From positions 1-41,300 of IMG/VR virus record IMGVR_UViG_2778261153_000009: a DNA stretch of 41,300 nucleotides; one strand, 5' to 3'. The translations under genes were made by a program, and so were the position numbers. Origin of the DNA: a virus (Duplodnaviria; Heunggongvirae; Uroviricota; Caudoviricetes). Shown here one piece after another: positions 3,470-23,974 of the stretch. Position 1 is the first letter of the stretch. Each line of letters starts with the position of its first letter. Below the pieces are notes generated by a model, which saw only the letters and a program-made list of their open reading frames with translations, did no database searches and was not told the DNA's origin.

Positions 3470-3540
3470 TTATTATATTTTAGGCGTGGTGATTTTTTTT
3501 CGCCATGCCTATTTTATATTTATCATCACAATGATGTTGT

Positions 3541-3957
3541 TTATTTTTGTTTAAGTCTTCTAAGCTTCATGCATTCTAATGAGAATAATAATAGAGTTGT
3601 GCTGTATATAAAGCCAGAGTTAGTTAATAACTTTAAATTTAATGCTTCAGGATTTTCACTGAGAAAGTGAAAGGCATAAACTAAGTATACAGCTAAAGTA
3701 GCCGTTCCAATTGTTGGTCCAATATCGCCTTGATCATGAGGTTCAAGGTTTACATTGAACTTGAAGATTAGCCATTCAAATCCCCAAGTAAAAAAAACAA
3801 CTAATATCATGGCTGCGAATAATTTCGCGATGTTATCTGCTGATGGATTCATCAGAACAGATTGTTTCTGAAAAAATTCACAAAGTGAGAGTCCGAAAAA
3901 AATAAAAAAAAGTGGTCTGGAACTAAATTTTTCAAAAACTTTGAATAGGGTTTCCAT
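3541..3957 (-). CDS. Small hydrophobic membrane protein, hypothetical
   Basis: 138-aa ORF with several hydrophobic stretches, AT-rich, convergent with the upstream operon. Confidence 0.4.
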   Translation of the reverse strand: METLFKVFEKFSSRPLFFIFFGLSLCEFFQKQSVLMNPSADNIAKLFAAMILVVFFTWGFEWLIFKFNVNLEPHDQGDIGPTIGTATLAVYLVYAFHFLSENPEALNLKLLTNSGFIYSTTLLLFSLECMKLRRLKQK

Positions 3958-3995: not shown

Positions 3996-5225
3996 TTAGG
4001 CTACCAGAGCATTTGATCTTTGAGCTTGAACGTAATCACTCCACCATTGCATCAAACTCTGTCGCTCTATCAGATATTCTGCACGATTGTATGCTGCGAT
4101 AATTTCATCTTTTTTCGAGTGGGCAAGCGCTGCCTCAAGAACTTCAGCTCTGAATTTACCAGACTCCTCTGCCGCTGTTCGTGCAATAGAACGCATACCG
4201 TGAGCTACAAGCTCGCCTCCGAACCCCATTCGGATGATAGCTGCGTTGGCTGTTTGTTCATGCATATGATTAAGAGGCGCTTTTATGCTGGGGAAAACCC
4301 ATTCTCTATGCCCACTTATTGATTTCATTAATTCAAGGATGCGCAAAGCTTCTTTACTCAAAGGAACTTTGTGAAGCTTTTTCATTTTCATGAAATCAGC
4401 AGGAATGTTCCAAATGCTGTTGGTTGTATCAATATCAGACCACCTTGCGCGAACGGCTTCACCCGGACGAACCCATGTCAACAATTGCCATTCAATTAGC
4501 ATACGTGTTTCCAACCGGATTGACGCATTCGTCAAAGATTCCATAAACCTTGGCAATTCGCTTGGGGGAAGGGCAGGCATATTTTGCTTTTTTGGTTTAC
4601 TGAATCTTTGACCAAGGTTGTCAGCCGGGTTGAACTCAATAAGTTCTTCAGTAGCTGCCCACCGGAAGATTTCATTCAGACGTGAAATGATACGGCGTAG
4701 AGTTTCCAATACGCCTCGTTGCTCAATAGGATCAAGGTGTTGTTTTAAGAGCTTAGGTCGGATCTCATTGATAGGGACATTACCCAGACCGGGAAAGACA
4801 TTTCTCTCTAAGCTGCGCCAGATGTCTGCTGCATGGTCTTGTGAGATACCTGATGTCTTTACCTTCTCATCTAACCATTTCCGCGCTACGGCTTGGAGAG
4901 TGTGCTCAGTAGCACTCTTTAATGCCTTCGCCTTATCGTTGTTATGGATTTGGGGATCAACACCATTTGCCAGAAAGGAGAGATATTCATCACGTAAGGC
5001 TCTGGCTCTTGCAAGGGTAAGGTGAGGATATGTCCCAAGGCTCATTTTGGTTCTTTTCTTGCTCACTGGTACTGCATACCTGAAATACCAATTTTTCTTG
5101 CCTCCTTTCGCCAAAGGAGCGATTCGTAGAATCAGACCATCACCGTCAAACAAGTTGATTTCTTTATCGGCTGGCTTGGTGCTTTTGATTTCAGTGTCAG
5201 TGAGCTTCTTAGCGATTTTTGCCAT
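3996..5225 (-). CDS. int: Tyrosine integrase, P4 family (IntA-like)
   Basis: N-terminus MAKIAKKLTDTEIK...LFDGDGLILRI, C-terminal SLMQWWSDY typical of P4-type integrases; start moved to Met15 of the ORF by analogy with IntA. Confidence 0.85.
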   Translation of the reverse strand: MAKIAKKLTDTEIKSTKPADKEINLFDGDGLILRIAPLAKGGKKNWYFRYAVPVSKKRTKMSLGTYPHLTLARARALRDEYLSFLANGVDPQIHNNDKAKALKSATEHTLQAVARKWLDEKVKTSGISQDHAADIWRSLERNVFPGLGNVPINEIRPKLLKQHLDPIEQRGVLETLRRIISRLNEIFRWAATEELIEFNPADNLGQRFSKPKKQNMPALPPSELPRFMESLTNASIRLETRMLIEWQLLTWVRPGEAVRARWSDIDTTNSIWNIPADFMKMKKLHKVPLSKEALRILELMKSISGHREWVFPSIKAPLNHMHEQTANAAIIRMGFGGELVAHGMRSIARTAAEESGKFRAEVLEAALAHSKKDEIIAAYNRAEYLIERQSLMQWWSDYVQAQRSNALVA

Positions 5226-5390
5226 TTTGGGACCCTCGGTTTTTGGACCCTTCTTAGTGGGTCCCATTCAGGGTGCCATAACTCGTAGTTCTCAGCAATT
5301 CTCACTGGACGACAATAGACGTAAAAAAGCCCGCAGAGCTTGTGCTGTGTGGGCTTAGTAGACTTCATTGAACTTCAAACAACTAAAAAG

Positions 5391-5422
5391 TGGTGGAGCT
5401 GGCGGGAGTTGAACCCGTGTCC
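5391..5422 (-). repeat. att direct repeat: partial copy of tmRNA (ssrA) 3' end
   Basis: Minus strand reads GGACACGGGTTCAACTCCCGCCAGCTCCACCA, matching the ssrA acceptor/T-arm 3' end as I recall it; upstream lacks any tmRNA tag-coding region. Confidence 0.7.
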
Positions 5423-5849
5423 ATAGTTATGTAATTCATTGAATTTAAATAGCCAAATATTGTTGATTTTACAAGCGGCTCTTTTGCGGAACTTTTTCTG
5501 TCCTGTTACTGTCTTACTATTTATTTTAAAATAGTTTCATTTGGAATTAATGGTTTGTGGTTGCAGTTTCGGAGATAGATAGCATTTTTTGCTAAAAAAT
5601 ATTTTTATAAAAAAATGTGTGTAAAAATGATGTTATGCACAGATTTATGCACAGAGGCTTTGTGATAAACCAGATTGTTTTGGATAAGTTTGTTTTTTTG
5701 TGATTTGTCAACAATATTATTGACTCTTGTTACTAAAGTGAGTGTTTTCTAAGGTGGTCAGAAGTTGTCCCTTCATGTAATCTTATTAGCCATAAAGAAC
5801 AAAAAATAATTCAACATCATTACCAACTATTTGTAAGATAAGGTTTTTA

Positions 5850-6665
5850 ATGTTGCAGCCAGCAAAAAAAGCATCAGTTATTAGCGCGCGGCTAACTAAA
5901 TACCTCAAAGATGGAGTGAGGATTGATGACTTTAGCTTTAGAAGGATGTTACGTGAGATTGAAGCACTTAGAGATCCTGTCTCTGAGGACTATCTTTTAG
6001 CGTTGGTCTATGGTGCACATGGCCAAGTGAATGAGGCGATAGGCTTCTTTGAGCGTTCCTTGCAGGTATGCCATAATGAGGTTGTTGCAAAGAATTTTCT
6101 TGTTTTCTTGTCAGATTACGGTACGTTGAAGAAAAGCTTTGAAACAAGCATTAAGCTTGCTGAAAGCTTCATATCCCCGTTTATTTATCTTCAAGCTTAT
6201 GAAAACTCCCTCTTTATGGGGAAGATGGCGTTGGCGGAGAAGTATTTCCAGTCATACTCTAAATTGTTCGGAGATAAGGAGCCTGAAAAAATGGACAACA
6301 ATTTTGATGAAGTTGTTTCCCAGGTCGAATCCTTTAAGCAACGTGCCGATCTTTCTGGTTTAGAATATGAACTTATTTTCAATAATGTAGCCAATGTCAT
6401 GGATTCTCAGAAGGTTCATCTTTCGGGAATGCGTTTTTATAATATTTCGGAAGAGAAAGTGAATGCGATTGTATTCATGACAAAGTCTTCTGATGCTGAA
6501 CAAATCGCTGATATGAATATTGAGCTTGCTTTTTCAATGGCTGAGCACGATTGTTTAGTCGGTAAAGATTTTGCTGTTTGGTTTGAATGTAAAGACACAC
6601 ATATTGAGCAGAATGCTATCTCCGAATTAGGTCTGATTACCCGGAGGGTTGCACATGCCGGTTAA
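5850..6665 (+). CDS. Hypothetical protein (AT-rich cargo between att and int)
   Basis: 271-aa ORF, no family recognised; overlaps the next gene. Confidence 0.5.
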   Translation: MLQPAKKASVISARLTKYLKDGVRIDDFSFRRMLREIEALRDPVSEDYLLALVYGAHGQVNEAIGFFERSLQVCHNEVVAKNFLVFLSDYGTLKKSFETSIKLAESFISPFIYLQAYENSLFMGKMALAEKYFQSYSKLFGDKEPEKMDNNFDEVVSQVESFKQRADLSGLEYELIFNNVANVMDSQKVHLSGMRFYNISEEKVNAIVFMTKSSDAEQIADMNIELAFSMAEHDCLVGKDFAVWFECKDTHIEQNAISELGLITRRVAHAG

Positions 6666-7038
6666 TAGTCAAGATTTTCTCGGTTTTGCAAAAGACTGTC
6701 ATCAACGTAATGACGAAATCGGCTATCGAAATGCTATAGCAAGATCCTACTATGGCGCTTACCATCATGTCTTGCCTTGTATGGTAAACGGGCCGAAAGA
6801 CAGTCATCAGGGGCTAATCAATTATTTGCAGGGCGATGCTTCAAGAGGAAGTGAAGTATATGAAGCTAGATATCTAAAAGGGATTAGTTTTATCCTGAGT
6901 CAACTTAAAGCTCAGAGGATTGTTGCAGACTATCGACTTGATCAATCGGTCACTTCTAAACAGTCTGAAGTTGCGATTCTAACAACTGAGAGGCTCTTTG
7001 CTAAGTGTACGGAAATGCTTAAATCGAGAGCCTCCTAA
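6655..7038 (+). CDS. Hypothetical protein, coupled to upstream gene
   Basis: ATG at 6655 preceded by SD GGAGGG; 11-nt overlap with upstream stop; contains RSYYGAYH (R-x6-H) motif. Confidence 0.5.
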   Translation: MPVNSQDFLGFAKDCHQRNDEIGYRNAIARSYYGAYHHVLPCMVNGPKDSHQGLINYLQGDASRGSEVYEARYLKGISFILSQLKAQRIVADYRLDQSVTSKQSEVAILTTERLFAKCTEMLKSRAS

Positions 7039-7043: not shown

Positions 7044-7067
7044 AAAGCCACTTAAGTGGCTTTTTTT
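7044..7067 (+). terminator. Rho-independent terminator (hairpin AAAGCCAC-TTAA-GTGGCTTT + T-run)
   Basis: Perfect stem followed by TTTTTTT between convergent genes; overlaps int stop codon. Confidence 0.5.
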
Positions 7068-8224
7068 GTGATATTGCTGGTCGTATTACCGTCATATTCC
7101 TTTAAATATGAACCATAATGACGAAATAACATTTCCGGCCCTTTATGCCCCATTTGAGCTGCAAGCCAAAACAGGTTTGCTCCCCGGCTGATATGGCGGG
7201 TGGCGAATGTATGCCTAGTTTGATATGGATTTCTGTAACGAATACCTGCTTTTCGCAATGTTGGCACCCATGCTTTTTTCCTGATTGCATCAGCACTTGC
7301 CCAAGGCTTATTGGTCTTTGGATCTTCAAAGACAGTAGTATCCTTCATGAATGTAAATGGCTTCTGATTTATCAGCGCCAACATTGCCTCTTCTGTCAGT
7401 TCAACTTTCCGAGTACCTGCTTTTGTCTTTGTCCCTTTGATAACACCGACAACACTTGCGCTCTGGACATGGGCAGTTTTTCCAACAAAGTCGATATCAC
7501 GCCATCGAAGGGCACATAATTCAGAACTACGCAGGCCTGTATGTATAGCGAACCGGAACAGATTTTCCCATTGTTTGTTTCCGGCTGCTGCTAGTAATGC
7601 ATCAACTTCTGCTGGTGATAGCGGATCAACTACGTAGCTGCTTTCTGCTTCTGACTTATCACTTTGGTAGCGCGAAGCTGTTACTAACGATACGGGGTTA
7701 ATTTGAAGTACCCCATCGGTCACGGCTTCATCAAGTGCTGACCGCAGGAAAGATAACTGGTTGCGAATTGTTTTTAAGGTCGTTTTCTGATTTTGAATCC
7801 ACGCTTTCAGGGTTGCTGGTGTTAATTCACTTGCAGGGCAAATGTGAAGTGAGGCTAACGCACTACGGCATTTTTTATAGCCACCAATCGTAGAGGGTGA
7901 AAGTTTTCTTGTTTCGCAGATTTCAAGATATTCGTCCAGGTACATCTTTACCGTTTTGCCTGCAGCAGCATTACCAAAAATTTTCAAACGAGCAGAACGG
8001 GGAAAATATTCTGCATAAATGAATGTTCCCCTTTCGATCTTATTATGGATTTCGCCGAGTGTACGCTCGGCGTATTTAATGTTCTTTGGTGTTACTTCCA
8101 GATTGGAAAGCGGCTCACGACATCTAACTCCTTTGTAGGTGAAAGTTATATTGATCGTTTCTCCCTGGCGGTGTTTCCTGATTGTTACGCCGCGCGGTAG
8201 TTTGAGCAGTTTTGTCTGGCCCAT
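7052..8224 (-). CDS. int: Phage tyrosine integrase (lambdoid)
   Basis: C-terminal RHTFATRHISRGANLFWLAAQMGHKGPEMLFRHYGSY catalytic region; N-terminal arm-binding-like domain. Confidence 0.85.
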   Translation of the reverse strand: MGQTKLLKLPRGVTIRKHRQGETINITFTYKGVRCREPLSNLEVTPKNIKYAERTLGEIHNKIERGTFIYAEYFPRSARLKIFGNAAAGKTVKMYLDEYLEICETRKLSPSTIGGYKKCRSALASLHICPASELTPATLKAWIQNQKTTLKTIRNQLSFLRSALDEAVTDGVLQINPVSLVTASRYQSDKSEAESSYVVDPLSPAEVDALLAAAGNKQWENLFRFAIHTGLRSSELCALRWRDIDFVGKTAHVQSASVVGVIKGTKTKAGTRKVELTEEAMLALINQKPFTFMKDTTVFEDPKTNKPWASADAIRKKAWVPTLRKAGIRYRNPYQTRHTFATRHISRGANLFWLAAQMGHKGPEMLFRHYGSYLKEYDGNTTSNITKKAT

Positions 8225-8391
8225 TTTGCAACCTCACTAAGATCAATCCACCTCTCCTTAACGCCTTCAACCTTTAAAACCTGAACACCTTCACGCCAAA
8301 CACCGCGCTGTACACGTTTGTTTATTGCTTCAGGAGTTTCGCCAGTTTCTTTGCAATAAGTTGAGATAGGAACACAATCGAGGTTCAGCAT
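8185..8391 (-). CDS. xis: Excisionase-like small DNA-binding protein
   Basis: 68-aa basic ORF immediately upstream of and overlapping int; SD GGAG 6 nt before ATG at 8391. Confidence 0.5.
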   Translation of the reverse strand: MLNLDCVPISTYCKETGETPEAINKRVQRGVWREGVQVLKVEGVKERWIDLSEVAKWARQNCSNYRAA

Positions 8392-8432
8392 ACGTTTCTC
8401 CATTATCCCGTCTGCACACGGGAGCAACATTA

Positions 8433-9299
8433 TTAACGAATAGTGTCGTTACTTTGAAGTACAGCAAATGCCATTAATACTTCTAAAGTATATCTTCTAT
8501 AAAATTTAACAAAACCAACATAGAAAACATAGACGAAGAAAAAGCTAAGCATTATTGAAAGTAAACTATAAAGATAATCACTATGAGTACATAATCGATA
8601 AATAAAGGTTGGAACTGATACCCAAAATGAAATTATAAAGATTAAACATATGTTTCTGCAAAAACCATATAATGCAACATAGTTTTGAATTTTTGTTTGA
8701 TGTTGTTTTGAAAACTCATAAACATAATGATATGCCAATCTGAAGAGATCATCATCAAGTCCGTTTTTATCTTGTAATAATTGGCGATTTGTTATGAACT
8801 TTTTCTCATAACCTTCTTTGATCATTAACCATGTTGTATTAGCTAAATGAAATGGTAGAGATTGAGAATAACATAGTTTTTGTGTTATAAAATCCCATAG
8901 TATTATTGGGCATAATACGCATTTGATTATGCGATTCTTTATTTTTGTTTTTTTATCAGCGCTTCTCTCATCGCATGATGGGCTACAAATGCTTTCTGAG
9001 GTATCTATCAATTTTTTAAATAGATATTTGGAAGGATATCCTAATTCTTTATTCATGTATTTTTCGATAAAAAATGCTGACGTGATAGAAATAAAATGTC
9101 CAGCTATATAAGATATAATAACTATTGAAGCGTAGTTCAAAATGCCAAAGATTTGACTTTGACCTCTGAGCAATTCACTTAAGTCAATAACAATATCTAG
9201 ATCGAATGTCAAACCACAGAAATACATTAATAGGATAAAAAAACCACCTGGTATTAAATATCCAAGAAAGTCATAGAATGAGAATGGATTTTGATTCAT
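8433..9299 (-). CDS. Multi-pass membrane protein, hypothetical (AT-rich cargo)
   Basis: ATG at 9299 with SD GGAGA; multiple hydrophobic segments; AT-rich unlike flanking phage genes. Confidence 0.55.
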   Translation of the reverse strand: MNQNPFSFYDFLGYLIPGGFFILLMYFCGLTFDLDIVIDLSELLRGQSQIFGILNYASIVIISYIAGHFISITSAFFIEKYMNKELGYPSKYLFKKLIDTSESICSPSCDERSADKKTKIKNRIIKCVLCPIILWDFITQKLCYSQSLPFHLANTTWLMIKEGYEKKFITNRQLLQDKNGLDDDLFRLAYHYVYEFSKQHQTKIQNYVALYGFCRNICLIFIISFWVSVPTFIYRLCTHSDYLYSLLSIMLSFFFVYVFYVGFVKFYRRYTLEVLMAFAVLQSNDTIR

Positions 9300-9407
9300 T
9301 GTTGCTCTCCAATAATTTTTCAATTTGTAATATAACCTATATCTATATGTTAATAAATTACTTATATGTTCTTTTATGGCAGAGTTTGAATTCGTACGTG
9401 CTGATTT

Positions 9408-9944
9408 TTACGACTCAGTTAACTCTTTAAAGCGTTCCATAAACATCCCGTAGGCATGGCCCGGTGCCAGTGGAATCACGTTGAACATCTCTGTTGCCGG
9501 GATACCTTCCAGTACGGGCCAGAAAGAGCCATCATCAAGCCCGAGATCGCGGCGTTCGGTTGCCAGCATGATGAGATCGGCATATTTCACGGGCGTACTC
9601 ATAACCGGGGGTAACCCGTATTTCTCACGGATTACGGCGTCTATTTTTTCTTCCATCCGTTTATAGTCAGGAAGAAGGCGTTTCAGTGGAGCCGGGATGT
9701 CCTGGCAATACGCTTCTGTTGCATCATGCATTAACGCTTCAAAAGCAAATTCCTGCGGTACCAGCTGGCTGCAAAGCACCGCATGTTGGGCGACGCTGTA
9801 GAAGTGTGAAAGATGGCCGGCAAAGCGACAGATATTTGAAAGGGAAACCGCGATATCGTTAATATCGATGTTGTCTTTATTTATCCTGTCATAATAAAAA
9901 TGTTTCCCGGAAAAAGTTTTAATAAATGACATTTTGTTCTCCAC
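9408..9944 (-). CDS. yfdR: HD-domain phosphohydrolase (YfdR-like)
   Basis: 178 aa; HD-type metal-binding motifs (H..HD); length and sequence match my recollection of CPS-53 YfdR. Confidence 0.65.
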   Translation of the reverse strand: MENKMSFIKTFSGKHFYYDRINKDNIDINDIAVSLSNICRFAGHLSHFYSVAQHAVLCSQLVPQEFAFEALMHDATEAYCQDIPAPLKRLLPDYKRMEEKIDAVIREKYGLPPVMSTPVKYADLIMLATERRDLGLDDGSFWPVLEGIPATEMFNVIPLAPGHAYGMFMERFKELTES

Positions 9945-10060
9945 GTTATATGCGCTGCACCGCGCTGAATTTTGGTTAAAGAAAACCCTCGCCTTCAGGC
10001 GATTATTGAGTCAATTACGTTTCCATAAATGCCCCCGCAGGGGCATTTGCAGTAATGAAA

Positions 10061-10885
10061 TCAGGCGGTGAAAGTCCCAATAAAGGTTTCTACTTTGCTG
10101 TCCTTGAATTTCTCAACAAGCAGATCACGAAATTCGTTAGCCATATCTTCCTGCACCGCTTCCAGCTGAATAATGCGCAGAACCAGTACAGGACGATCGC
10201 CAGTGATAATGCTGAGGCGTAATTTAAACGGACGTTCTTTCAGACCTTCAAACGGAACGCATTTAAACTCAAATGCCACTGGCATAATGTCTTTGGTCTT
10301 CGCTTCGACAGACTCCATCAGGGAGCGTTTGCCGCTGAAGTCATTATCTTCAAAATCAGCAGTCTGGTTTGCTTCAATCGTGATTTTACGGACCGCCGCA
10401 GCCGCTTTTGTTGCCTGAATGGTGTCACCATTAGCATCAAAGCCCACAAGGTAGTCGGCCCAGTCTTCGATCCATTCTGCCAGTGACTTCTGGGAGTTAC
10501 GCTCGCCGTTAACAGACAACAGAGCAGAGAACGGTGCTGTCTTTTTCAGTTTGAGAGTGGCAGTGTTATCTGCGTGACCTGGCTCATCAATAGTACCCAG
10601 GTTAAGCACACTGACGGCACGCATATTATCGGCATCGATAAAGCAGCGGGTGCCTTCATCTGCAAGATCTTTAGAATAACGGGTAAAATCATCGATGCTG
10701 GCAGTGGAAAGTGCACCACGGAAACGGAAGCGATTTAAATTAAATTTTTCCAGATCATGAATGCGGAAATTCTCAGGCAATGCCACAGCATCGGCACCAA
10801 TCTTACTGATAATTTCATTAACACCCTGAGCAGAAATAAGGGCATGGATTTGATTAATTGCGGTTGCGTCTAAGTTCTGAGACAT
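10061..10885 (-). CDS. yfdQ: DUF2303-family prophage protein (YfdQ-like)
   Basis: 274 aa; position and length match yfdQ in the yfdP-Q-R arrangement. Confidence 0.6.
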
Positions 10886-10950
10886 AATAAGTCCTCACTA
10901 TATAAAGATATTCAGTGATGAGATAAATAATCAGTTTATTACGAACGATA

Positions 10951-11313
10951 TTAACGACCTGCTGCGCGGAGTTTTCCGTCAGGTTCACCGGCAAGAGTCA
11001 GTAATTGTCCCTGGTCTTCCTGCAGAATAGTCAGGCGACCACCGCGATTGACATACATCGGCGTTTCGGTGGTGTCTTCTTCGGAAATTTTCCCGCGGTT
11101 AGTTGGGCGAACATATGAGAGTTTGTGTTTGATTTTCACACGGTTCTCATCAAACGGTTCGATTTCCAGGTTGAGCGAGACCTTACCTTTGGTTTTCGTG
11201 TTCATCACACCGGAAGCGACTTCACTGAGAACTGCGCCGATTTTGGTTTCAAATACGCCGCCGTCCAGCTCCCCGATAAATGCCTGCACATCAGTACTGC
11301 GTTCGCTAGCCAT
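10951..11313 (-). CDS. yfdP: Prophage protein (YfdP-like)
   Basis: 120 aa from ATG at 11313 with SD GAGGAG; upstream part of the longer ORF is GC-rich leader, not coding. Confidence 0.55.
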   Translation of the reverse strand: MASERSTDVQAFIGELDGGVFETKIGAVLSEVASGVMNTKTKGKVSLNLEIEPFDENRVKIKHKLSYVRPTNRGKISEEDTTETPMYVNRGGRLTILQEDQGQLLTLAGEPDGKLRAAGR

Positions 11314-11781
11314 TTTGCTGCTCCTCATCATATCGACCCTGCAAGGTCGGTTAGTTTCTCCACAAAACAGAGAAGAACACCTGCGGTGACTGCCGCCCGG
11401 ATGGATTGGGTTATGAGCCCGTCGTCCGGTGATGCTCTTCTCTGTTTTGTAAAAAGGACGGTACCAGCCGGAAGCAAGGGTACAAGCTGGTACCGCCAGG
11501 ACTACACACAGCATAAAGTTGTGGTGCCGGGTGCCTCCCGGTGCCTGGCGAAGGTTGCACACCAGGCGGGTGGGTATCCACAGAAGGTCGACTGTCAGCC
11601 TCAACCTTAACCCGCGTGCGCTGAGCCGCATTCACCACAACGCTAAGGATTCTCTCTGGTTGAAAATACTTAGCTGTTATGTGCCTGCTTTTAGCCACAT
11701 CAGGCGAGGTGGACCTGGTTATTCCCCAACAACAAGGATTCGGTTAATCTGGTTATCCCCAACAACGCAAAAGGAAAAGAA
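11314..11781. promoter_or_regulatory. GC-rich structured non-coding region between divergent genes (leader/regulatory or ncRNA)
   Basis: 15-bp perfect inverted repeat 11362..11376 / 11436..11450; 9-bp inverted repeat 11460..11468 / 11486..11494; two direct repeats CTGGTTATYCCCAACAAC at 11715..11733 and 11749..11766. Confidence 0.35.
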
Positions 11782-12216
11782 ATGTCCGGTAATATCTATA
11801 CGCTGTACAAATCCCACTGTGAAAATGTTGGAAAGTATCGGGGCATTGAAATCAGTGGGGTAGTGTCATCAGTCGAAATAAGCAAAGTTGAATCAAGGGC
11901 AACATTACTTACTCTTTTGGACCTTGTCTTACATGAGCACCGGAAGAAATTCGGCACTCCCTATAATCAGTTGAATGGGAAAAAGGCTCTGGTTCACCTT
12001 ATTCTGATGAAGCATCACTGGATGCCAAAACAGATTAATGAGATGAAATTTGATGAACTTCTTCTTTCAATTCAGGATGAACTCACACTTGATAAAATAA
12101 GCGTAACCGCCCAGAAATTTTTAGATTATCGAGACTGGAGATCACAAATTCATCACTTTGATGATTTTGACGAAAATGAATGGGATCCTAATTTGTCTGC
12201 ACAATATCTAAAGTAA
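11782..12216 (+). CDS. Hypothetical protein, oriented against the early-left operon
   Basis: 144-aa ORF, ATG preceded by AAAAGGAAAAG; no family recognised. Confidence 0.5.
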   Translation: MSGNIYTLYKSHCENVGKYRGIEISGVVSSVEISKVESRATLLTLLDLVLHEHRKKFGTPYNQLNGKKALVHLILMKHHWMPKQINEMKFDELLLSIQDELTLDKISVTAQKFLDYRDWRSQIHHFDDFDENEWDPNLSAQYLK

Positions 12217-12394
12217 CATCCTGTGATAAAACCGTGATTTCCTGATCCAGTTTTTTTAAGGAGTCTATTGTTTCCTGTCGATAAGACAGCACTTCACGAA
12301 GCTGGTTTATAGCTGCCAGCTTCTTTGTCATCCACTCATAAATTTCCTCATCTGTGTAGCCAGGCGCGACGATTTTGGGTTCTGTTTTGTGCAT
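12188..12394 (-). CDS. Small hypothetical protein
   Basis: ATG at 12394 with SD GAGGAG 7 nt upstream. Confidence 0.4.
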   Translation of the reverse strand: MHKTEPKIVAPGYTDEEIYEWMTKKLAAINQLREVLSYRQETIDSLKKLDQEITVLSQDVTLDIVQTN

Positions 12395-12453
12395 TTCACA
12401 TCTCCTCAAGTTATCAGTTACTTGTTGATGGGGACCAGATTGTTAAAGAGCTA

Positions 12454-12477
12454 AGCGTCCTGTAGGGCGCTTTTTTG
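12454..12477 (+). terminator. Putative intrinsic terminator
   Basis: AGCGTCC-TGTA-GGGCGCT stem followed by TTTTTT. Confidence 0.4.
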
Positions 12478-12689
12478 TTGCTAACGAATCATCCTGGACT
12501 TCATATGCCCCAGGCGGCTACTTCGTGGGCGTCCTGCCTGTTCGTTTTTGACATTTACTGACTGCTTACGACACATGCACCGTGTTGCAACCAGATTTTG
12601 TTGTAATCCTGTAGTTGGTCTGGAACAAAAGATAAAATTAAATTGCGATATATGCAAGTGATTTTTGCGAAATATGCAAATTTATAGGT

Positions 12690-12713
12690 AATAAAAAGCC
12701 ACCTTTCGGTGGC
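12690..12713 (-). terminator. Putative intrinsic terminator downstream of repressor gene
   Basis: GCCACC-GAAA-GGTGGC hairpin followed by T-run on minus strand. Confidence 0.45.
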
Positions 12714-12733
12714 CGATGGATGGGATATTGAGG

Positions 12734-13426
12734 TTAATTATGTCTCTTAAGGGTTTGCGACTGACTGATTAAGACCTTTCCAAAGACCATGAATCGGTGT
12801 TCGTTTTCGCTAGTAATTCCCCATTCACGGTAAATCTGGTTATCAGAAATCACCAGCAGTTTGTCAGGAATCATTTGAAGTCTTTTAACGTATATTTTGT
12901 CATCAAAACCAAAGACATATATACCATCACCATCAAACTGATTGATGCTGACATCAACGAAGATGAGATCTCCTGGCTCAATGGTTGGACACATACTGTC
13001 CCCACGAACGTTGATAACTTTGATGTGATTGGCTGGTCGTCCGCCGAACATTGATACAGCATTATCAGTTCTGTATTCGATGGCATGAATCACATCAATG
13101 ACATCACCGCCCTGGATAAGGCCATTTCCCGCACTGGCACTGATATCCAGCATTTCAATACGGAACACATCCTTCACCTGCGCAACATCCTCATTATTAC
13201 TGTTTTTATATACAGTATTACTTTTGTGGGCAGAGGTAAAGAGATCAGCAATATCAACACCTAAGCTCTTGGCAATATTACTCAGTGTTTGTTCGGTAAA
13301 TTGTTTTTGCTTACCCGTTTCTAAGCGCGAGATGTTCGCCGCATCTACTCCTATTGCTTCAGCGAGATCGGCGATTTTCATGTTCTTCGCTTGGCGAAGT
13401 TGTCTGACTCGGTTTCCTATGTTCAT
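12734..13426 (-). CDS. CI-like phage repressor (HTH + S24 LexA-like peptidase domain)
   Basis: N-terminal HTH MNIGNRVRQLRQAKNMKIADLAEAIGVDAANISRLE; C-terminal autocleavage-type domain; divergent from cro-like gene. Confidence 0.85.
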   Translation of the reverse strand: MNIGNRVRQLRQAKNMKIADLAEAIGVDAANISRLETGKQKQFTEQTLSNIAKSLGVDIADLFTSAHKSNTVYKNSNNEDVAQVKDVFRIEMLDISASAGNGLIQGGDVIDVIHAIEYRTDNAVSMFGGRPANHIKVINVRGDSMCPTIEPGDLIFVDVSINQFDGDGIYVFGFDDKIYVKRLQMIPDKLLVISDNQIYREWGITSENEHRFMVFGKVLISQSQTLKRHN

Positions 13427-13523
13427 GCGTTTATTACATTTCTTTATTGCGTGATAAGCAAATCAACTTGCGCAAAATAATTGCGTGAAATAACATGCAT
13501 AACGCGCAATATCTGGAGGACAT
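13427..13523. promoter_or_regulatory. Immunity operator/promoter region (OR-like)
   Basis: Four copies of TTGCG(T/C)(G/A)A at 13447, 13468 (palindrome TTGCGCAA), 13481 and ~13502 between divergent cI-like and cro-like genes. Confidence 0.5.
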
Positions 13524-13784
13524 ATGCAATCACCATTACGAAATGTGCGTAAGGCGCATGGTTTCACTTTGCAGCATGTTGCTGCGGGTGTTCAAGTCAA
13601 TCCAGCGACGTTGAGTCGTATTGAGAGGCTGGAGCAGATTCCATCTATCGAGCTTGCAGAACGTTTAGCCAATTTTTTTAAGGGTGAAGTCAGCGAAATG
13701 CAGATTCTTTATCCGGCACGTTTTCAATCTAGCCAAAATCAGAATGGGTTTAAACCACAGGAACAGGAGGTGAACCGTGGGTAA
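13524..13784 (+). CDS. Cro-like HTH regulator
   Basis: 86-aa HTH protein, SD GGAGGA, transcribed divergently from repressor. Confidence 0.6.
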   Translation: MQSPLRNVRKAHGFTLQHVAAGVQVNPATLSRIERLEQIPSIELAERLANFFKGEVSEMQILYPARFQSSQNQNGFKPQEQEVNRG

Positions 13785-14328
13785 GCATCACTGGAAAGTA
13801 GAAAAACAGCCTGAGTGGTACGTGAAAGCTGTCAGAAAAACTATCGCAGCGTTGCCGGGGGGGTACGCTGAAGCTGCTGACTGGCTGGATGTAACAGAGA
13901 ACGCTTTATTCAACCGCCTTCGTGCCGATGGCGATCAGATTTTCCCGCTGGGATGGGCAATGATTTTGCAACGTGCTGGTGGAACTCACTTCATTGCTGA
14001 CGCTGTGGCGCAGTCTGCAAATGGCGTCTTTGTGTCTCTTCCTGACGTCGAGGATGTGGACAACGCCGATATTAACCAGCGCCTGCTGGAAGTCATTGAA
14101 CAGATCGGCAGTTATTCAAAACAGATTCGTTCAGCAATTGAAGACGGTGTAGTGGAACCGCATGAGAAGACAGCAATTAACGACGAGCTGTACCTCTCAA
14201 TTTCGAAGCTGCAGGAGCATGCAGCACTGGTCTACAAAATTTTTTGCATTTCAGAAAGTAATGACGCCCGCGAGTGTGCAGCTCCGGGCGCCGTGGCGTG
14301 TCGTGACTGTGGAGAAACTAACGCATGA
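13777..14328 (+). CDS. CII-like phage regulatory protein (CP76 family)
   Basis: 183 aa; position after cro; resembles CII/CP76-type regulators as I recall them. Confidence 0.5.
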
Positions 14329-14663
14329 ACAGTTTAACAACACACTACCGTCGCTCGCAACTGATTGCGCTTCCTGTACCGGGTGGAAAAGCGAAGGTGG
14401 AGTATTGCTATGCAGTAAATGTACCAGGTGACAGGGAAATTGTAACCCACAGCTTTGCAGAGTGGGCTGTGGGTGATTTCAACCGGCAGAAGGAGACAGT
14501 CCTTTGCGACAAGTTAACCGCTGGTTCAAAGATCACTACGGAGTGCCCGTCAGAGTCATTCGTTGGGAGCCGGAAACACAACGGGTTATCTACCTCCGCG
14601 AAGGCTATGAGCATGAGTGCTTCAGCCCGCTCGAACAGTTTCGTCGTAAATTCAGGGAAATAG
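14325..14663 (+). CDS. Hypothetical protein
   Basis: ORF in operon context, overlapping stop/start with neighbours. Confidence 0.35.
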
Positions 14664-14672
14664 AGGTCGGTC

Positions 14673-15614
14673 ATGAGCACTAAATTAACCGGCTATGTAT
14701 GGGATGGTTGCGCTGCATCAGGCATGAAATTATCCAGCGTGGCAATTATGGCCCGCCTGGCTGATTTCAGTAATGACGAAGGTGTGTGCTGGCCATCAAT
14801 TGAAACCATTGCCCGCCAGATTGGCGCGGGGATGAGTACCGTCAGAACGGCTATCGCACGGCTGGAAGCAGAAGGCTGGTTAACGCGTAAGGCGCGTCGC
14901 CAGGGTAACCGCAATGCGTCGAATGTTTATCAGCTTAACGTTGCGAAGCTTCAGGCAGCGGCATTTTCTCAACTGTCAGATTCTGACCCGTCAAAATCTG
15001 ACGCATCAAAATCTGACCCGTCAAAATTTGATGCGTCGAAATCTGGCAAAAAAGCGGGTTTTCACCCGTCAGAATCTGGCGGGGATCCGTCAGTAAAATC
15101 AAAACATGATCCGTCAGATAAAAAAACTTCTCGTCCGGACGCTTCGCAACCGGACACGCAGACGGATGAACAGGATTTTTTAACTCGCCATCCTGATGCG
15201 GTTGTATTCAGCCCTAAAAAGCGCCAGTGGGGAACGCAGGATGATTTGACCTGCGCACAGTGGCTCTGGAAAAAAATCATCGCCCTGTACGAGCAGGCCG
15301 CCGAATGTGACGGCGAGGTGGTTCGTCCCAAAGAACCGAACTGGACAGCCTGGGCAAACGAAATTCGCCTGATGTGTGTGCAGGATGGTCGTACTCACAA
15401 ACAAATCTGCGAGATGTACAGCCGCGTCAGCCGCGATCCGTTCTGGTGCCGTAACGTGCTCAGCCCGTCGAAGCTGCGGGAAAAATGGGATGAGCTTTCC
15501 CTGCGCTTATCGCCGTCCGTAAGCACGTACACTGAAAAACGCGAAGACCCGTACTTCAAATCCAGTTACGACAACGTGGACTACAGCCAGATCCCGGCAG
15601 GATTCAGGGGGTGA
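14673..15614 (+). CDS. Phage replication initiator (O-like; HTH N-terminus, DnaT-like C-terminus)
   Basis: N-terminal winged-helix-like region, repetitive S/D/K linker encoded by iterons, C-terminal replication domain. Confidence 0.7.
   Translation: MSTKLTGYVWDGCAASGMKLSSVAIMARLADFSNDEGVCWPSIETIARQIGAGMSTVRTAIARLEAEGWLTRKARRQGNRNASNVYQLNVAKLQAAAFSQLSDSDPSKSDASKSDPSKFDASKSGKKAGFHPSESGGDPSVKSKHDPSDKKTSRPDASQPDTQTDEQDFLTRHPDAVVFSPKKRQWGTQDDLTCAQWLWKKIIALYEQAAECDGEVVRPKEPNWTAWANEIRLMCVQDGRTHKQICEMYSRVSRDPFWCRNVLSPSKLREKWDELSLRLSPSVSTYTEKREDPYFKSSYDNVDYSQIPAGFRG
14977..15125. repeat. Iteron array (putative phage origin) inside the initiator gene
   Basis: 6-7 imperfect direct repeats of CCGTCA(A/G)AATCTGA followed by an A-rich stretch. 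Confidence 0.6.
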
Positions 15615-16105
15615 TCATGAGTCTGTTAAATGACGTTCAGAAATTCATTGAAGCCCATCCGGGGTGTACTTCCGGAGACATTGCGGATGCTTTTGCTGGT
15701 TACTCACGGCAGCGCGTTCTGCAGTCAGCAAGCAAGTTACGTCAGAGTGGGCGTGTGGCTCACCGTTGTGAAGGGGATACACGCAGACATTTCCCGCGCC
15801 TGACTGAGAGAGCGCAGGAGCCGGAACCACAACCAGTTCGTGAAACCAGACCTGCGCGCAATTTCTATGTCGGCACTAACGATCCCCGGGTGATTTTGTG
15901 CCTGACCCGCCAGGCGGAAGAACTGGAGTCAAGGGGCTTATACCGTCGTGCTGCAACCGTGTGGATGGCGGCATTCCGTGAAAGCCACTCCCAGCCAGAA
16001 CGAAACAATTTTCTGGCGCGTCGTGAGCGGTGCTTACGGAAAAGCAGCAAGCACGCTGCATCGGGTGAAGAGTGGTATCTGTCAGGGAATTACGTGGGGG
16101 CTTAA
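15611..16105 (+). CDS. PerC-like regulatory protein (putative)
   Basis: Motif AEELESRGLYRRAATVWMAA resembles PerC-family signature. Confidence 0.4.
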   Translation: MIMSLLNDVQKFIEAHPGCTSGDIADAFAGYSRQRVLQSASKLRQSGRVAHRCEGDTRRHFPRLTERAQEPEPQPVRETRPARNFYVGTNDPRVILCLTRQAEELESRGLYRRAATVWMAAFRESHSQPERNNFLARRERCLRKSSKHAASGEEWYLSGNYVGA

Positions 16106-16758
16106 TGAGTAATAAATATTGCCAGGCGCTGGTGGAACTGCGGAATAAACCAGCCCATGAACTGAAGGAAGTGGGAGATCAGTGGCGCACGCCGGATAAC
16201 ATTTTCTGGGGAATTAACACCCTGTTTGGTCCGTTTGTTCTGGATCTGTTCACTGACGGTGATAACGCCAAATGTGCCGCGTATTACACGGCGGAAGACA
16301 ACGCGCTGGCGCATGACTGGTCAGAACGTCTTGCGGAGCTTAAAGGTGCTGCCTTTGGTAATCCCCCATACAGCCGCGCCAGTCAGCATGAGGGGCAATA
16401 CATCACCGGCATGCGTTACATCATGAAACATGCCAGTGCCATGCGTGATAAGGGCGGGCGCTATGTTTTCCTGATCAAAGCTGCCACCAGCGAAGTGTGG
16501 TGGCCGGAAGATGCGGACCATATTGCTTTTATTCGCGGGCGTATTGGTTTTGAACTGCCTGCCTGGTTTATCCCGAAGGATGAGAAGCAGGTGCCGACAG
16601 GCGCTTTCTTCGCTGGTGCTATTGCTGTTTTCGACAAGACCTGGAAGGGACCGGCAATCAGCTACATCGGGCGCGATGAACTTGAGGCATGTGGTGAAGC
16701 CTTTCTGGTGCAGGTTCGCCAGCAGGCGGAAAAACTGGTCAGGGAGATGGCGGCATGA
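16105..16758 (+). CDS. Phage N6-adenine DNA methyltransferase (Dam-like)
   Basis: FGNPPYS catalytic motif; ATG overlaps upstream stop (TAATG). Confidence 0.75.
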   Translation: MSNKYCQALVELRNKPAHELKEVGDQWRTPDNIFWGINTLFGPFVLDLFTDGDNAKCAAYYTAEDNALAHDWSERLAELKGAAFGNPPYSRASQHEGQYITGMRYIMKHASAMRDKGGRYVFLIKAATSEVWWPEDADHIAFIRGRIGFELPAWFIPKDEKQVPTGAFFAGAIAVFDKTWKGPAISYIGRDELEACGEAFLVQVRQQAEKLVREMAA

Positions 16759-17081
16759 CGACGTTAACTCAATGCCAGCAGCAGGTGCTGGATATGCTGA
16801 TTTCTTACCAGAAAGAGCGTGGCTTTCCGCCAACCAATCAGGAGGTGGCAACCATGCTGGGATACCGTTCAGTGAATGCAGCGGTAGAGCATCTTCGTGC
16901 ACTGGAGAAAAAAGGCGTCATCACGATAAAGCGTGGCGTGGCCCGGGGGATAACGCTTCATACCGCGGTGAAGGACGACGACAGCGAGGCGGTCGGGATT
17001 ATCCGCACACTGCTTGCCGGTGAGGAAAACGCCAGGCTGCGTGCAGCCCACTGGTTACATGAGAGGGGGCTGAAAGTATGA
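16755..17081 (+). CDS. LexA-N-terminal-like DNA-binding protein
   Basis: QQVLDMLISYQKERGFPPTNQEVATMLGYRSVNAAVEHLRALEKKGVI resembles the LexA DNA-binding domain. Confidence 0.55.
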   Translation: MTTLTQCQQQVLDMLISYQKERGFPPTNQEVATMLGYRSVNAAVEHLRALEKKGVITIKRGVARGITLHTAVKDDDSEAVGIIRTLLAGEENARLRAAHWLHERGLKV

Positions 17082-17467
17082 AGCTGATCCTGCCTTTTCC
17101 ACCCAGCGTGAACACCTACTGGCGACACCCCAACAAAGGGGCATTTGCTGGTAAGAGCCTGATAAGCGCGGCGGGGCGAAAATTCCAGAGTGCGGCGTGC
17201 ACAGCAATAGTTGAGCAGTTACGTCGTCTGCCGAAACCAACGTCAGCACCTGCTTCAGTGGAGATCGTGTTGTTTCCTCCGGATAACCGGATCCGCGATC
17301 TGGACAACTATAACAAGGCGCTGTTTGACGCCCTGACTCACGCGGGTGTGTGGGAAGACGACAGCCAGGTGAAAAGAATGCTGGTGGAGTGGGGACCGGT
17401 TATCCCGGAAGGGAAGGTCGAGATCACTATCAGTAAGTATGAGAAACCGGCGGGTGCAGCCGCCTGA
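17078..17467 (+). CDS. rusA: Holliday junction resolvase RusA
   Basis: Motifs PSVNTYW and RDLDNYNKALFDAL. Confidence 0.8.
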   Translation: MKLILPFPPSVNTYWRHPNKGAFAGKSLISAAGRKFQSAACTAIVEQLRRLPKPTSAPASVEIVLFPPDNRIRDLDNYNKALFDALTHAGVWEDDSQVKRMLVEWGPVIPEGKVEITISKYEKPAGAAA

Positions 17468-17486
17468 TTAAGAGGAGAAACGAAGT

Positions 17487-18296
17487 ATGAATAATCTGAT
17501 GGTCATTGATGGTATTGAAGTTCGTCGTGATGCTTATGGGCGTTACAGCCTGAACGATCTGCACAGGGCAGCCGGGGGAGAACAAAAAAACCGCCCGAAA
17601 TACTGGCTCTCCAATAAGCAAACCTGTGAATTGATTGAACAACTTTTCACCGAGGGTGGAATTCCGCCTCTGGAACAAAATCAACCAGTTAGCGTCATTA
17701 ATGGCGGAAATAACCAGGGGACGTATGTCTGCAAAGAACTGGTGTATGCCTATGCAATGTGGATCAGCCCGTCATTCCATCTGAAGGTGATCCGTACTTT
17801 CGATATGGTAACCAGCGTACCGGAAAAATTATCCGGGCAGGCTGCTGACAAGATGCAGGCTGGAGTGATTCTGCTGGACTTTATGCGCCGGGAGTTAAAC
17901 CTGTCTAACTCTTCAGTGCTTGGGGCCTGTCAGAAACTCCAGGAGGCTGTTGGCTTACCGAATCTGGCACCGCGCTATGCCATTGATGCTCCTGCTGACG
18001 CGCCTGATGGCTCAAGTCGCCCGACACTGTCGCTGAGTGCACTGCTGAAACAGTATGGTATCCGCCTTACGGCTAATCAGGCATATCACCAGATGGCGAA
18101 GCTGGGGATCGTCGAGCAGCGCGAACGATACAGCCGTACCGCGATTAACAACATCAAAAAATTCTGGTCGCTGACGGCGAAAGGCTGCATGTTCGGCAAG
18201 AACATCACCAGTCCCGCAAATCCGCGCGAGACGCAGCCGCATTTCTTCGAATCCCGATTCCCTGAGCTGTTAAAGCTGCTCGATACCGTTCATTGA
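17487..18296 (+). CDS. KilA-N domain protein (antirepressor-like)
   Basis: N-terminal KilA-N-like sequence YSLNDLHRAAG...YWLSNKQTCELIEQL. Confidence 0.6.
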   Translation: MNNLMVIDGIEVRRDAYGRYSLNDLHRAAGGEQKNRPKYWLSNKQTCELIEQLFTEGGIPPLEQNQPVSVINGGNNQGTYVCKELVYAYAMWISPSFHLKVIRTFDMVTSVPEKLSGQAADKMQAGVILLDFMRRELNLSNSSVLGACQKLQEAVGLPNLAPRYAIDAPADAPDGSSRPTLSLSALLKQYGIRLTANQAYHQMAKLGIVEQRERYSRTAINNIKKFWSLTAKGCMFGKNITSPANPRETQPHFFESRFPELLKLLDTVH

Positions 18297-18297
18297 G

Positions 18298-19293
18298 GTG
18301 ACCGTGAGAGCACTACTAACCCCTGAAATTGCCCCGCGTATGGGGATCGTATTGTTCAGACCAGGTTCAGAGCTGATGCCCCTGTTTATGCAGGGGCGTG
18401 TCCTGCTGGAGCCTGAGCCGGAACGTTATTCATCTTTCGCCAGTGGTGCCGTTCCGGCGGCATCACAACCGCTGGCGGATGATCCTGCCGTTCAGGCCGT
18501 GTTCCGCAATGAGGCAGTGATCCGTCGTGCTGGTGGCGTGGAATGTCTTGAAAGCTGGTTACTTCGTGAAAAAGGCTGCCAGTGGCCTCATTCCGACTGG
18601 CACAGCGAGAACATGACCACAATGCGACACGCTCCGGGCGCAATCCGTCTGTGCTGGCACTGCGATAACCAGCTGCGCGATCAGTTCACGGAACGGCTGG
18701 AATCAATGGCAACGGATAACTGTGCCCGCTGGGTGTTGTCTGTTGTGCGTCGGGATCTCGGTTTTGATGACAGTCACGTTGTGACAATGCCGGAACTGTG
18801 CTGGTGGCTGATTCGTAATGATCTGGCGGATGCCTTACCGGAAAGTGCAGCCCGTAAGGCACTGAGATTACCGAAGCCTGTTGTGCCGTCTGTTACCCGG
18901 GAAAGTGACCTTGTGCCTTCGGTTCCTGCCACCAGCATCATCCAGGATAAGGCGAAAAAGGTGCTGGCGCTGAAAGTGGATCCGGAGTCGCCGGAGTCTT
19001 TTATGTTACGCCCAAAACGTCGCCGCTGGGTTAATGAAAAGTACACGCGCTGGGTTAAGACACAGCCGTGTGCATGTTGTGGAAAGCCTGCTGATGATCC
19101 CCACCACTTGATAGGCCACGGTCAGGGTGGGATGGGTACAAAAGCGCATGACCTCTTTGTGTTGCCTTTGTGCAGAAAGCATCACGACGAGCTGCATGCG
19201 GATACCGTGACATTTGAAGAGAAGTATGGCTCCCAGCTGGAGCTGATATTTCGTTTTATCGATCGTGCGCTGGCAATTGGCGTGCTGGCCTGA
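18298..19293 (+). CDS. DUF968-family phage protein with C-terminal HNH-like Cys/His cluster
   Basis: CACCGKPADDPHHLIGHG...CRKHHDELH at C-terminus. Confidence 0.55.
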   Translation: MTVRALLTPEIAPRMGIVLFRPGSELMPLFMQGRVLLEPEPERYSSFASGAVPAASQPLADDPAVQAVFRNEAVIRRAGGVECLESWLLREKGCQWPHSDWHSENMTTMRHAPGAIRLCWHCDNQLRDQFTERLESMATDNCARWVLSVVRRDLGFDDSHVVTMPELCWWLIRNDLADALPESAARKALRLPKPVVPSVTRESDLVPSVPATSIIQDKAKKVLALKVDPESPESFMLRPKRRRWVNEKYTRWVKTQPCACCGKPADDPHHLIGHGQGGMGTKAHDLFVLPLCRKHHDELHADTVTFEEKYGSQLELIFRFIDRALAIGVLA

Positions 19294-19295
19294 TT

Positions 19296-19658
19296 TTGTG
19301 GAGAAAGTTGATGCGTGATATGTATGAAGTGATGGATCGTTGGGGAGCTTGGGCTGCTTCAGACAATAGCGGAGTGGACTGGCAACCGGTAGCCGCTGGC
19401 TTCAAGGGGCTTTTACCTCATGGCAAAAAGTCCCGGATTCAGTGTGATGATGATGAGGGGCTCATGATCGATGGGTGCGTAGCTAGATTAAGAAAGTACA
19501 AACCAGAAGAGTATGAATTAGTTATAGCCCATTTTGTGGTAGGGATTTCATTGCGAGCCATTGCTAAGAAGAGAAAGTGTTCGGATGGGACTATCAGGAA
19601 AGAGTTGCAAACATCGCTTGGTTTCATTGAAGGCATTGTTTGCACTCTTGCCTGTTAA
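19296..19658 (+). CDS. Late-gene antiterminator Q-like protein
   Basis: Resembles enterobacterial prophage Q proteins (MRD..ERWGAWAA...AAGFKGL...C-rich zinc motif); lies upstream of lysis genes. Confidence 0.7.
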   Translation: MWRKLMRDMYEVMDRWGAWAASDNSGVDWQPVAAGFKGLLPHGKKSRIQCDDDEGLMIDGCVARLRKYKPEEYELVIAHFVVGISLRAIAKKRKCSDGTIRKELQTSLGFIEGIVCTLAC

Positions 19659-19679
19659 CTATTCTTAACTGTCTTCTAG

Positions 19680-20564: not shown

Positions 20565-20569
20565 GGTTA

Positions 20570-21091
20570 TTATCCTTTAACATGTAGAAATGTGTAGTCT
20601 GTTAATTGAATAACTGTAAATTTGATATCTTTAATATCAGTAATGACTGATTTAGAAATCAATACAAAACCTACGCCGGTGTCATCTTCAGCTTCGTAAA
20701 ATTTATAACCGATAAGTGACAATACTGGGTTAAAGTTATAGTTCTCGGAAAAGCTGATGTAAAATAACAATGACAAATAAAAGAATAACGCATATGCTTT
20801 ATTTTCAGCAATAGAGTCTGTTCCTAGGAGAGGGAATAAATAGCTTAAGAAATAATTAGTTACTTCTTTGTTAGCGGGAGAAACTGAACTAATATTTTTT
20901 GTCAGAGGTTCAAGTTGTTTCTCAGCATATTGAATCAGGCCTATTGCTAATAACCAACTTGCTATGCCAACGCATAAGCTATATTGCATCAGCCAAACCG
21001 TATCTTTTACATATCCAATAAAAAATAGAGTTGCGCAAACAGGTGCAATTGAGCTTGCTGTTAATAATAAGCGTGCTAATTTGTTCATCAT
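20570..21091 (-). CDS. Membrane protein, ~4 TM helices (AT-rich cargo)
   Basis: 173 aa with four hydrophobic segments; SD AAAGGA. Confidence 0.55.
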   Translation of the reverse strand: MMNKLARLLLTASSIAPVCATLFFIGYVKDTVWLMQYSLCVGIASWLLAIGLIQYAEKQLEPLTKNISSVSPANKEVTNYFLSYLFPLLGTDSIAENKAYALFFYLSLLFYISFSENYNFNPVLSLIGYKFYEAEDDTGVGFVLISKSVITDIKDIKFTVIQLTDYTFLHVKG

Positions 21092-21179
21092 GATATCCTT
21101 TGTACTGTTTATGCATACAGCACTTTACATCATGTACTCCAAAGTATCTATCTTGTGAAGAATCTTACACTAAATACTA

Positions 21180-21280
21180 CAGAAAAAGTTAACGCGTACG
21201 CAAAAAGTATTATATCGTGTTAAGAGTGGTTACTTCGCCACACAGCTTAAACCCGCCATTGAGCGGGTTTTGTCGTTTTT
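21180..21280 (+). promoter_or_regulatory. Putative late promoter (PR'-like) with tR'-like terminator
   Basis: TATTAT -10-like hexamer at 21208..21213; hairpin AAACCCGC-CATTGA-GCGGGTTT + T-rich tail at 21249..21280. Confidence 0.35.
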
Positions 21281-21748: not shown

Positions 21749-21751
21749 TTT

Positions 21752-23961: not shown

Positions 23962-23974
23962 TAATAACTCTCAA

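Follow-up and report, generated by a model that had tools for sequence, protein, structure and literature searches.

The displaced 3' fragment left by integration into a tRNA or tmRNA gene, as well as tandem arrays of integrated elements, have been documented (PMC4383910). In the Islander survey, no target is more enriched than the tmRNA gene, and 125 tandem arrays were reported in 2,168 genomes (PMC4383910). The tmRNA site is also a hotspot with an extreme diversity of elements (Bobay 2013; PMC3603311), and ssrA, the best known of such hotspots, is reported to have several integrase subfamilies together with tandem arrays (Williams 2003, as cited in PMC10107115, PMC3603311 and PMC4383910). 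In S. Typhimurium LT2, for instance, both Fels-2 and the P4-integrase element Stm27X are listed at ssrA (PMC10107115), and for E. coli CFT073 the ssrA element Ecoc48X is listed with an undamaged ssrA end (table in PMC10107115, citing Williams 2003).

Two described elements are closest to those analysed here. The first is CP4-57 of E. coli K-12 (integrase IntA; attR = psaA), a 22-kb element which keeps a 14-bp distal repeat with a deletion of T357; such a T-deleted distal repeat is typical of P4-type elements, and K-12 carries psaA (PMC10107115). The second is Citrobacter phage phiNP, an active temperate myovirus whose attP/attB was experimentally mapped to 25 bp (TGGTGGAGCTGGCGGGAGTTGAACC) of the ssrA 3' end. 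In lysogens of E. coli K-12, the phage is integrated at this site and ssrA is regenerated intact (PMC6456863; its integration at ssrA is taken from Petty 2011 and Magaziner 2019, PMC6456863).

The ssrA fragment and its genomic setting

The window, i.e. the whole stretch of 41,300 nucleotides that was analysed, carries on its minus strand a 32-mer (GGACaCGGGTTCAACTCCCGCCAGCTCCACCA) which agrees with the 3'-terminal 32 nt of E. coli ssrA at 31 positions. Its only mismatch (A vs. G in the tmRNA sense) falls on the base that opens the 5' strand of the T-stem. A perfect match of 27 nt (5391..5417) lies 3' of it and ends at the ssrA 3' terminus (...CCACCA); just four matching bases lie 5' of it, the similarity to ssrA ending past 5422. 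When up to three mismatches were allowed, this was the single match to the ssrA end in the window, and none was found in 100 shuffles. No tmRNA or tRNA gene was detected in the window, either by ARAGORN or by Rfam at the gathering score. At relaxed thresholds, the Rfam tmRNA model scored only 21 bits at the fragment (5391..5438), its gathering score being 47. The features of the window are given in Table 1.

Table 1. Features of the window on either side of the ssrA fragment, in window coordinates.
Feature	Position	Strand	Basis or remark
Histidine-kinase-like ATPase, 572 aa	1..1719	+	Pfam HATPase_c/HEF_HK
Receiver-domain protein, 588 aa	1703..3469	+	N-terminal Response_reg_2; ~400 further residues without family match
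Small hypothetical protein	3541..3957	-	Island cargo
P4-type (CP4-57 IntA-like) tyrosine integrase, transcribed away from the ssrA fragment	3996..5267	-	Pfam, NCBIfam, identity to IntA
Island spacer, from ssrA end to integrase start	5268..5390 (123 bp)	-	Intrinsic-terminator-like hairpin 5327..5341 and T run (terminator scan)
Displaced ssrA 3'-terminal fragment (ssrA')	5391..5422	-	31/32 match; strain alignments break at 5391 and 5422
25-bp core TGGTGGAGCTGGCGGGAGTTGAACC	5391..5415	-	Identical to phiNP attP/attB core; also within intact ssrA
T-loop equivalent AGTTGAA (+ strand)	5407..5413		Inside the 25-bp core
Single mismatch, A for G	5418	-	Phage P-arm side of the core
Prophage P arm, AT-rich, non-coding	5423..5849		Homology to phiNP P arm; 98-100% identity in 44 E. 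coli genomes
Two overlapping cargo ORFs (271 and 129 aa), AT-rich segment, between prophage integrase and attR	5850..7038	+	
phiNP-type tyrosine integrase, pointing to attR	7052..8224	-	93% protein identity to phiNP; Pfam Arm-DNA-bind_2 and Phage_integrase
Excisionase	8185..8430	-	phrog_2917, E = 8e-45; phiNP xis annotated at the same position
Prophage remainder	8431..41300		RefSeq annotation of ES7 and SFE8; runs 5.9 kb past the window to intact ssrA

Concerning the genomic setting, the window is E. coli DNA: it differs from strain ES7 by one difference in 41,300 bases and is near-identical to SFE8, except for an inverted tail-fibre segment at its very end. In ES7, an intact ssrA of 363 nt occupies the window-equivalent positions 47237..47599 (-), 5,937 bp to the right of the window end, with smpB adjoining, and in SFE8 the intact gene is likewise found just past the right end of the prophage. 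Judging from these near-identical public genomes, the intact ssrA and attL would therefore lie outside the window, at that position. The ssrA end has only two copies in the 50-kb ES7 locus, both in direct orientation and separated by 41.8 kb (5423..47236). The 32-nt match is one to the ssrA of this organism, a gene which is identical (363/363) in lysogens and non-lysogens (ES7, SFE8, W, K-12 and strain 1449). The first-pass annotation had read from the window a match of about 32 nt with one mismatch and the lack of a tmRNA body upstream, and had expected an intact ssrA beyond the prophage right end; all of this was borne out, the match at precisely the coordinates given.

It had also proposed a comparison with strains having an empty ssrA site, and this comparison gave several states of the site. 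In strain 1449, which has neither element, the intact ssrA is followed by 683 bp and then by glaH. E. coli W has the island only: its intact ssrA is followed by the spacer of the window, the P4-type integrase, the cargo and IS3, without prophage. Conversely, UID2309220027 and CFT073 have the prophage only, followed by the 32-mer with the same A at the position equivalent to 5418 and then by the glaH-side flank, and in E14 the same prophage arm abuts the ypjA region. Both elements, in the order prophage, fragment and island, are present in the window and in 21 genomes.

The alignments to the other site states break exactly at 5390/5391 and 5422/5423. Base for base (170/170), the 170 bp to the left of the fragment equal those behind the intact ssrA of E. 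coli W; in UID2309220027, the fragment is followed by a flank that matches the post-ssrA sequence of strain 1449, again at 170/170 positions. As for their frequencies, the prophage P arm was found in 44 of 5,426 complete genomes, 21 of which have the island junction, with others abutting the glaH or ypjA flanks; a 100% identical arm occurs in at least three flanking contexts. The island-ssrA junction was found at ≥99% identity in hundreds of genomes, vs. 21 for the combined junction.

The Islander signature is complete for the prophage: an intact ssrA, a 3' fragment in the same orientation, a tyrosine integrase inside and a length within 2-200 kb, to which are added relatives with an uninterrupted site (E. 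coli W and strain 1449) whose breakpoints are at the shared core. The fragment forms the attR of the prophage and was formerly the attL, or ssrA end, of the P4-type integrase island. It is an ordinary, already known signature of integration into a tRNA/tmRNA gene (Williams 2003; Islander). The locus is a further instance of the element traffic long known from ssrA, and it raises no new question. The fragment places the left end of the prophage precisely at 5422/5423 and the right end of the island remnant precisely at 5390/5391, so that the cargo genes can be assigned to the correct element: Kiwa and two unknown ORFs, plus AbiTii and a type IV restriction enzyme outside the window, for the prophage, and a pair of kinase-like and receiver-domain genes for the island.

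The phiNP-type prophage

Among phage records, only Citrobacter phage phiNP matched the int region of the prophage at the DNA level (83%). In the same free-phage search, vB_EcoM-689R6 and the Sf phages, which have the structural genes in common with the prophage, gave no match to the int/att module. The following features are shared with phiNP: the integrases have 93% protein identity over 382 aa, xis adjoins int in both, the same 25-bp core is found at both ends of the phiNP record, and the P and P' arms are homologous, the phiNP P' arm being 85% identical to the post-ssrA sequence of ES7. In both phages, cargo is present between int and the att core, and a DinI-like gene near the P' arm. The differences concern the level of DNA identity of the int region, the att-proximal cargo and the position of the mismatch in the 32-mer, which is at base 7 in phiNP vs. 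base 5 here, i.e. 2 nt further 3'.

Within the P arm, a block conserved with the phiNP P arm (5475..5506) contains one GGACA motif (5499..5504, TGTCCT on the + strand). GGACA-containing repeats, of which there are one in the P arm of the window and three to four in P' arms, compared with a background of 1.3 RGGACR per kb, are candidate arm-type integrase sites. Integration and excision at ssrA have been shown experimentally for phiNP (PMC6456863); for the present prophage, its occurrence at ssrA in three flank contexts suggests that it integrates into, and excises from, this gene. As for phiNP itself, its lysogens of K-12 would necessarily share the prophage - ssrA' - P4-integrase layout, because CP4-57 follows ssrA in K-12.

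The two overlapping ORFs next to attR had no Pfam or NCBIfam match above cut-off and no PADLOC family, and they match only PHROG families of unknown function. The equivalent slot in phiNP is occupied by an AAA ATPase gene and an unannotated D12-methylase-like ORF, and these different genes make it a variable cargo position. The prophage of CFT073 has the same two ORFs, a P arm at 98.4% identity and an integrase of the same family beside the ssrA fragment, but its fragment abuts the glaH-side flank, with no P4-type island between. It presumably corresponds to the listed element Ecoc48X.

The remainder of the prophage comprises early genes, a repressor/cro-like pair, replication genes, a Q antiterminator, Kiwa, and genes for lysis, terminase, head, contractile tail and baseplate. 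By annotation, a repressor/cro-like pair, Q and a lambda-family holin follow one another as in lambdoid phages. Mu-like baseplate genes accompany those of the contractile tail, and the structural genes share 97% DNA identity with Shigella phages SfII, SfI and SfV and with Escherichia phage vB_EcoM-689R6. The prophage, which had been described as lambdoid from the window, therefore appears to be so in its regulatory and lysis modules only; its contractile-tailed virion resembles that of SfII/SfV, and the int/att module is of the phiNP type. It looks recently mobile: the int and xis frames are uninterrupted and the att arm is 100% identical in several chromosomal contexts.

A complete Kiwa pair (19680..21091, minus strand; KwaB 19680..20564, KwaA 20570..21091) separates the prophage gene for the Q antiterminator from that for the holin and is encoded on the strand opposite to theirs. 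Defence cargo varies among near-identical copies of the prophage, and the attL-adjacent cargo differs (L007 43141..47068; L012 6986..9277): in ES7 and SFE8, the attL side holds genes for an AbiTii-domain protein and for a type IV methyl-directed restriction enzyme (DUF262), together with a DinI-like pseudogene and a truncated invertase gene, whereas in UID2309220027 it codes for a hypothetical protein of 502 aa and has pinE intact. ES7 (L007 40938..43263; window 41242..41300) and SFE8 (L002 24354..26679) carry the tail-fibre segment in opposite orientations, and the invertase gene beside it is annotated as a truncated pseudogene in both genomes. Another invertase of the Pin/Gin type may have inverted the segment in trans, or the inversion may predate the truncation.

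The P4-type island

On the other side of the fragment, the island integrase has the Pfam domains Arm-DNA-bind_3, Phage_int_M and Phage_integrase, matches NCBIfam PRK09692 (440 bits for a cut-off of 434) and is 48% identical to K-12 IntA. Its longest ORF starts 124 bp from the fragment (the RefSeq start is at 5225), and the same 124 bp separate the integrase from the end of the intact ssrA in E. coli W. A P4-type integrase at this distance, in the tRNA-to-int arrangement, is what had been reported from the window.

As in CP4-57, the ssrA end is immediately followed by a P4-type integrase gene that has the orientation of ssrA; a terminator-bearing spacer precedes this gene, and the domain architecture is the same. 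In contrast to CP4-57, with its 22 kb and its distal repeat, the island is about 5.4 kb long, ends at IS3, has no distal repeat and carries unrelated cargo. Its origin by integration into ssrA is suggested by the homology to CP4-57 and by its position.

For the two large genes of the island, no PADLOC match was obtained, nor anything above the NCBIfam cut-offs; the kinase-like and receiver-domain pair may form an uncharacterised two-component-like conflict system. The first of these genes starts 152 bp after the IS3, which lies to the left of the window and abuts a truncated alpha-amylase-like pseudogene (L001 25931..28417). The same island genes, with the same IS3 spacing, occur in E. coli W and SFE8. 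An IS-associated deletion probably removed the distal part of the island, its attR and the chromosome up to the alpha-amylase-like pseudogene.

A third ssrA-end repeat bounding the island was searched for with a 23-mer and a 16-mer (up to three mismatches), with a T-deleted 13-mer (up to one mismatch) and by blastn-short with the last 60 nt, and none was found in the 28 kb to the left of the window, in E. coli W or in the ES7 locus. With no distal ssrA repeat and with IS3 at its truncated end, the island has decayed into a fixed remnant, rather than being a second member able to excise. With respect to a strict Islander array, the locus has the intact target gene and a same-orientation displaced 3' fragment, and each element has its own integrase (3996..5267, of the Arm-DNA-bind_3 type, and 7052..8224, of the Arm-DNA-bind_2 type). 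However, such an array needs one fragment per member and the island has lost its own, so that only the prophage counts as a complete member.

The first-pass annotation had viewed the fragment as the junction between two elements stacked at ssrA. Two integrases, exact breakpoints and the site states agree with this, short of a distal repeat belonging to the island. Likewise, its suggestion that repeats be sought past both window ends led to the intact ssrA on the right and to no second repeat on the left, over 28 kb.

In the spacer, positions 5323..5400 (minus strand) match both ends of the Rfam model of IsrM, a Salmonella island sRNA, with 52.8 bits for a gathering score of 376. The match lacks the central 253 nt, and the 5' end of the model overlaps the last bases of the ssrA fragment; the IsrM gene is absent here. 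The isrM gene of LT2 is located between STM2762 and STM2763, at a distance of about 66 kb from smpB (PMC2330248). The match suggests that isrM in Salmonella LT2 occupies the equivalent fragment-to-integrase position of an ssrA array.

History of the locus and the sequence following ssrA

The reading preferred here, with a probability of about 0.92, is that the displaced ssrA 3' end was left by a phiNP-type prophage which integrated at ssrA beside an older, decayed island. The ancestral state would have been that of E. coli W, with smpB, ssrA, the terminator spacer of about 124 bp, the P4-type integrase, three cargo genes and IS3, the decayed CP4-57-like island having presumably once integrated into ssrA itself. 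The phiNP-type attP would contain a copy of the last 25-27 nt of ssrA between the P and P' arms, and the phage tyrosine integrase would recombine it with the ssrA 3' end. The crossover most likely took place within, or just 3' of, the T-loop TTCAACT, which fits the mismatches of both phages, situated 5' of the T-loop; the T-loop region is one of the known crossover sublocations (PMC4383910).

By this recombination, the phage P' arm would supply the new ssrA 3' end and its terminator (attL, outside the window), and the old ssrA end with the attached island would be displaced by 41.8 kb, to the far side of the prophage. The attR would then be a hybrid, with a few 5' bases from the phage P arm and with the 3' part and everything leftward from the old chromosome, i.e. 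the island. A P-arm origin of the 5' bases of the fragment would account for the mismatch at 5418. The fragment itself would not be expressed, its sole role being that of a recombination site.

The prophage is probably still able to excise, as far as its sequence can tell: integrase and excisionase would recombine attR with attL and restore a W-like arrangement of ssrA and island, leaving ssrA undamaged. An excision altering ssrA, as with the T357 deletion of CP4-57, was considered and is unlikely, because both sites share the 27 nt 3' of the mismatch, the match extends by only four bases on its 5' side, and the lysogens have a wild-type ssrA. Excision of the prophage by the P4-type integrase was also considered and is unsupported, and the arm sites on the far side of the island are gone.

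Alternatively, the array might have been imported as a block, or built by homologous recombination between strains through the flanks on the smpB side and on the island/gab side. One prophage in three backbone contexts, a region known as a recombination-rich hotspot and the varied hosts of the 21 carriers of the combined junction would all suit such a history. Nevertheless, the breakpoints fall exactly at the att core on both sides, the hallmark of a junction created by site-specific recombination, in whatever lineage this took place, and a block import would alter the history of the locus but not the identity of the fragment. We consider this explanation improbable.

With regard to the order of arrival, the same final sequence would result from a resident prophage and a later integration of the island into the displaced fragment (attR) rather than into the intact gene, the core being identical at both sites. 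This reverse order is very unlikely. The island is immobile, without distal repeat, and its IS3 junction is shared by W and the carriers (SFE8 and ES7-like genomes); its junction with an intact ssrA is found in hundreds of genomes and the combined one in only 21; and the prophage, with an identical arm in at least three contexts, appears to be the recently mobile partner. For these reasons, integration of the phiNP-type prophage beside the older island would have been the later of the two events. That the 32-mer is a chance match or the decayed remnant of an ssrA duplicate unrelated to integration, for which the lack of an adjoining tmRNA body is the sole support, has a negligible probability, given the shuffles, the 32-mer's end at the ssrA 3' terminus, its direct orientation with the intact gene, its coincidence with the phiNP core and the synteny breakpoints with other strains at both its edges.

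The sequence following ssrA was also compared with the phage arms. Right behind the ssrA end, empty E. coli sites have a block of about 160 bp with 81-85% identity to the phiNP P' arm, which contains three to four RGGACR repeats and a terminator. It is found in strain 1449 (L009 ~3500..3671), in ES7 after the intact ssrA (L007 47075..47236) and in K-12 after the distal CP4-57 repeat, following psaA (L008 22987..23150). An Rfam scan of the conserved post-ssrA flank gave no family above threshold.

A 37-nt motif of this block is situated exactly 62 nt after the ssrA end, be it intact or a fragment, in 13 of 18 species-representative loci (L013-L030), and 61 nt after a T-deleted fragment in three more. 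The 16 loci with the motif are mostly from genera of Enterobacterales, namely Klebsiella, Raoultella, Erwinia, Trabulsiella, Leclercia, Mixta, Enterobacter, Pseudenterobacter and Escherichia. A few motif loci are labelled as non-enterobacterial (Chryseobacterium, Ancylobacter MAG), which contamination may explain.

It is conceivable, at somewhat under even odds, that the "native" ssrA 3' flank and terminator of many Enterobacterales is a fossil or domesticated P' arm or, conversely, that the phage arm is a captured host flank. If so, in either direction, a site without any element would itself be a scar, and imperfect direct repeats of about 190 bp would often flank phiNP-type prophages. In UID2309220027, the P'-like flank and the prophage's own P' arm are both present in one genome.
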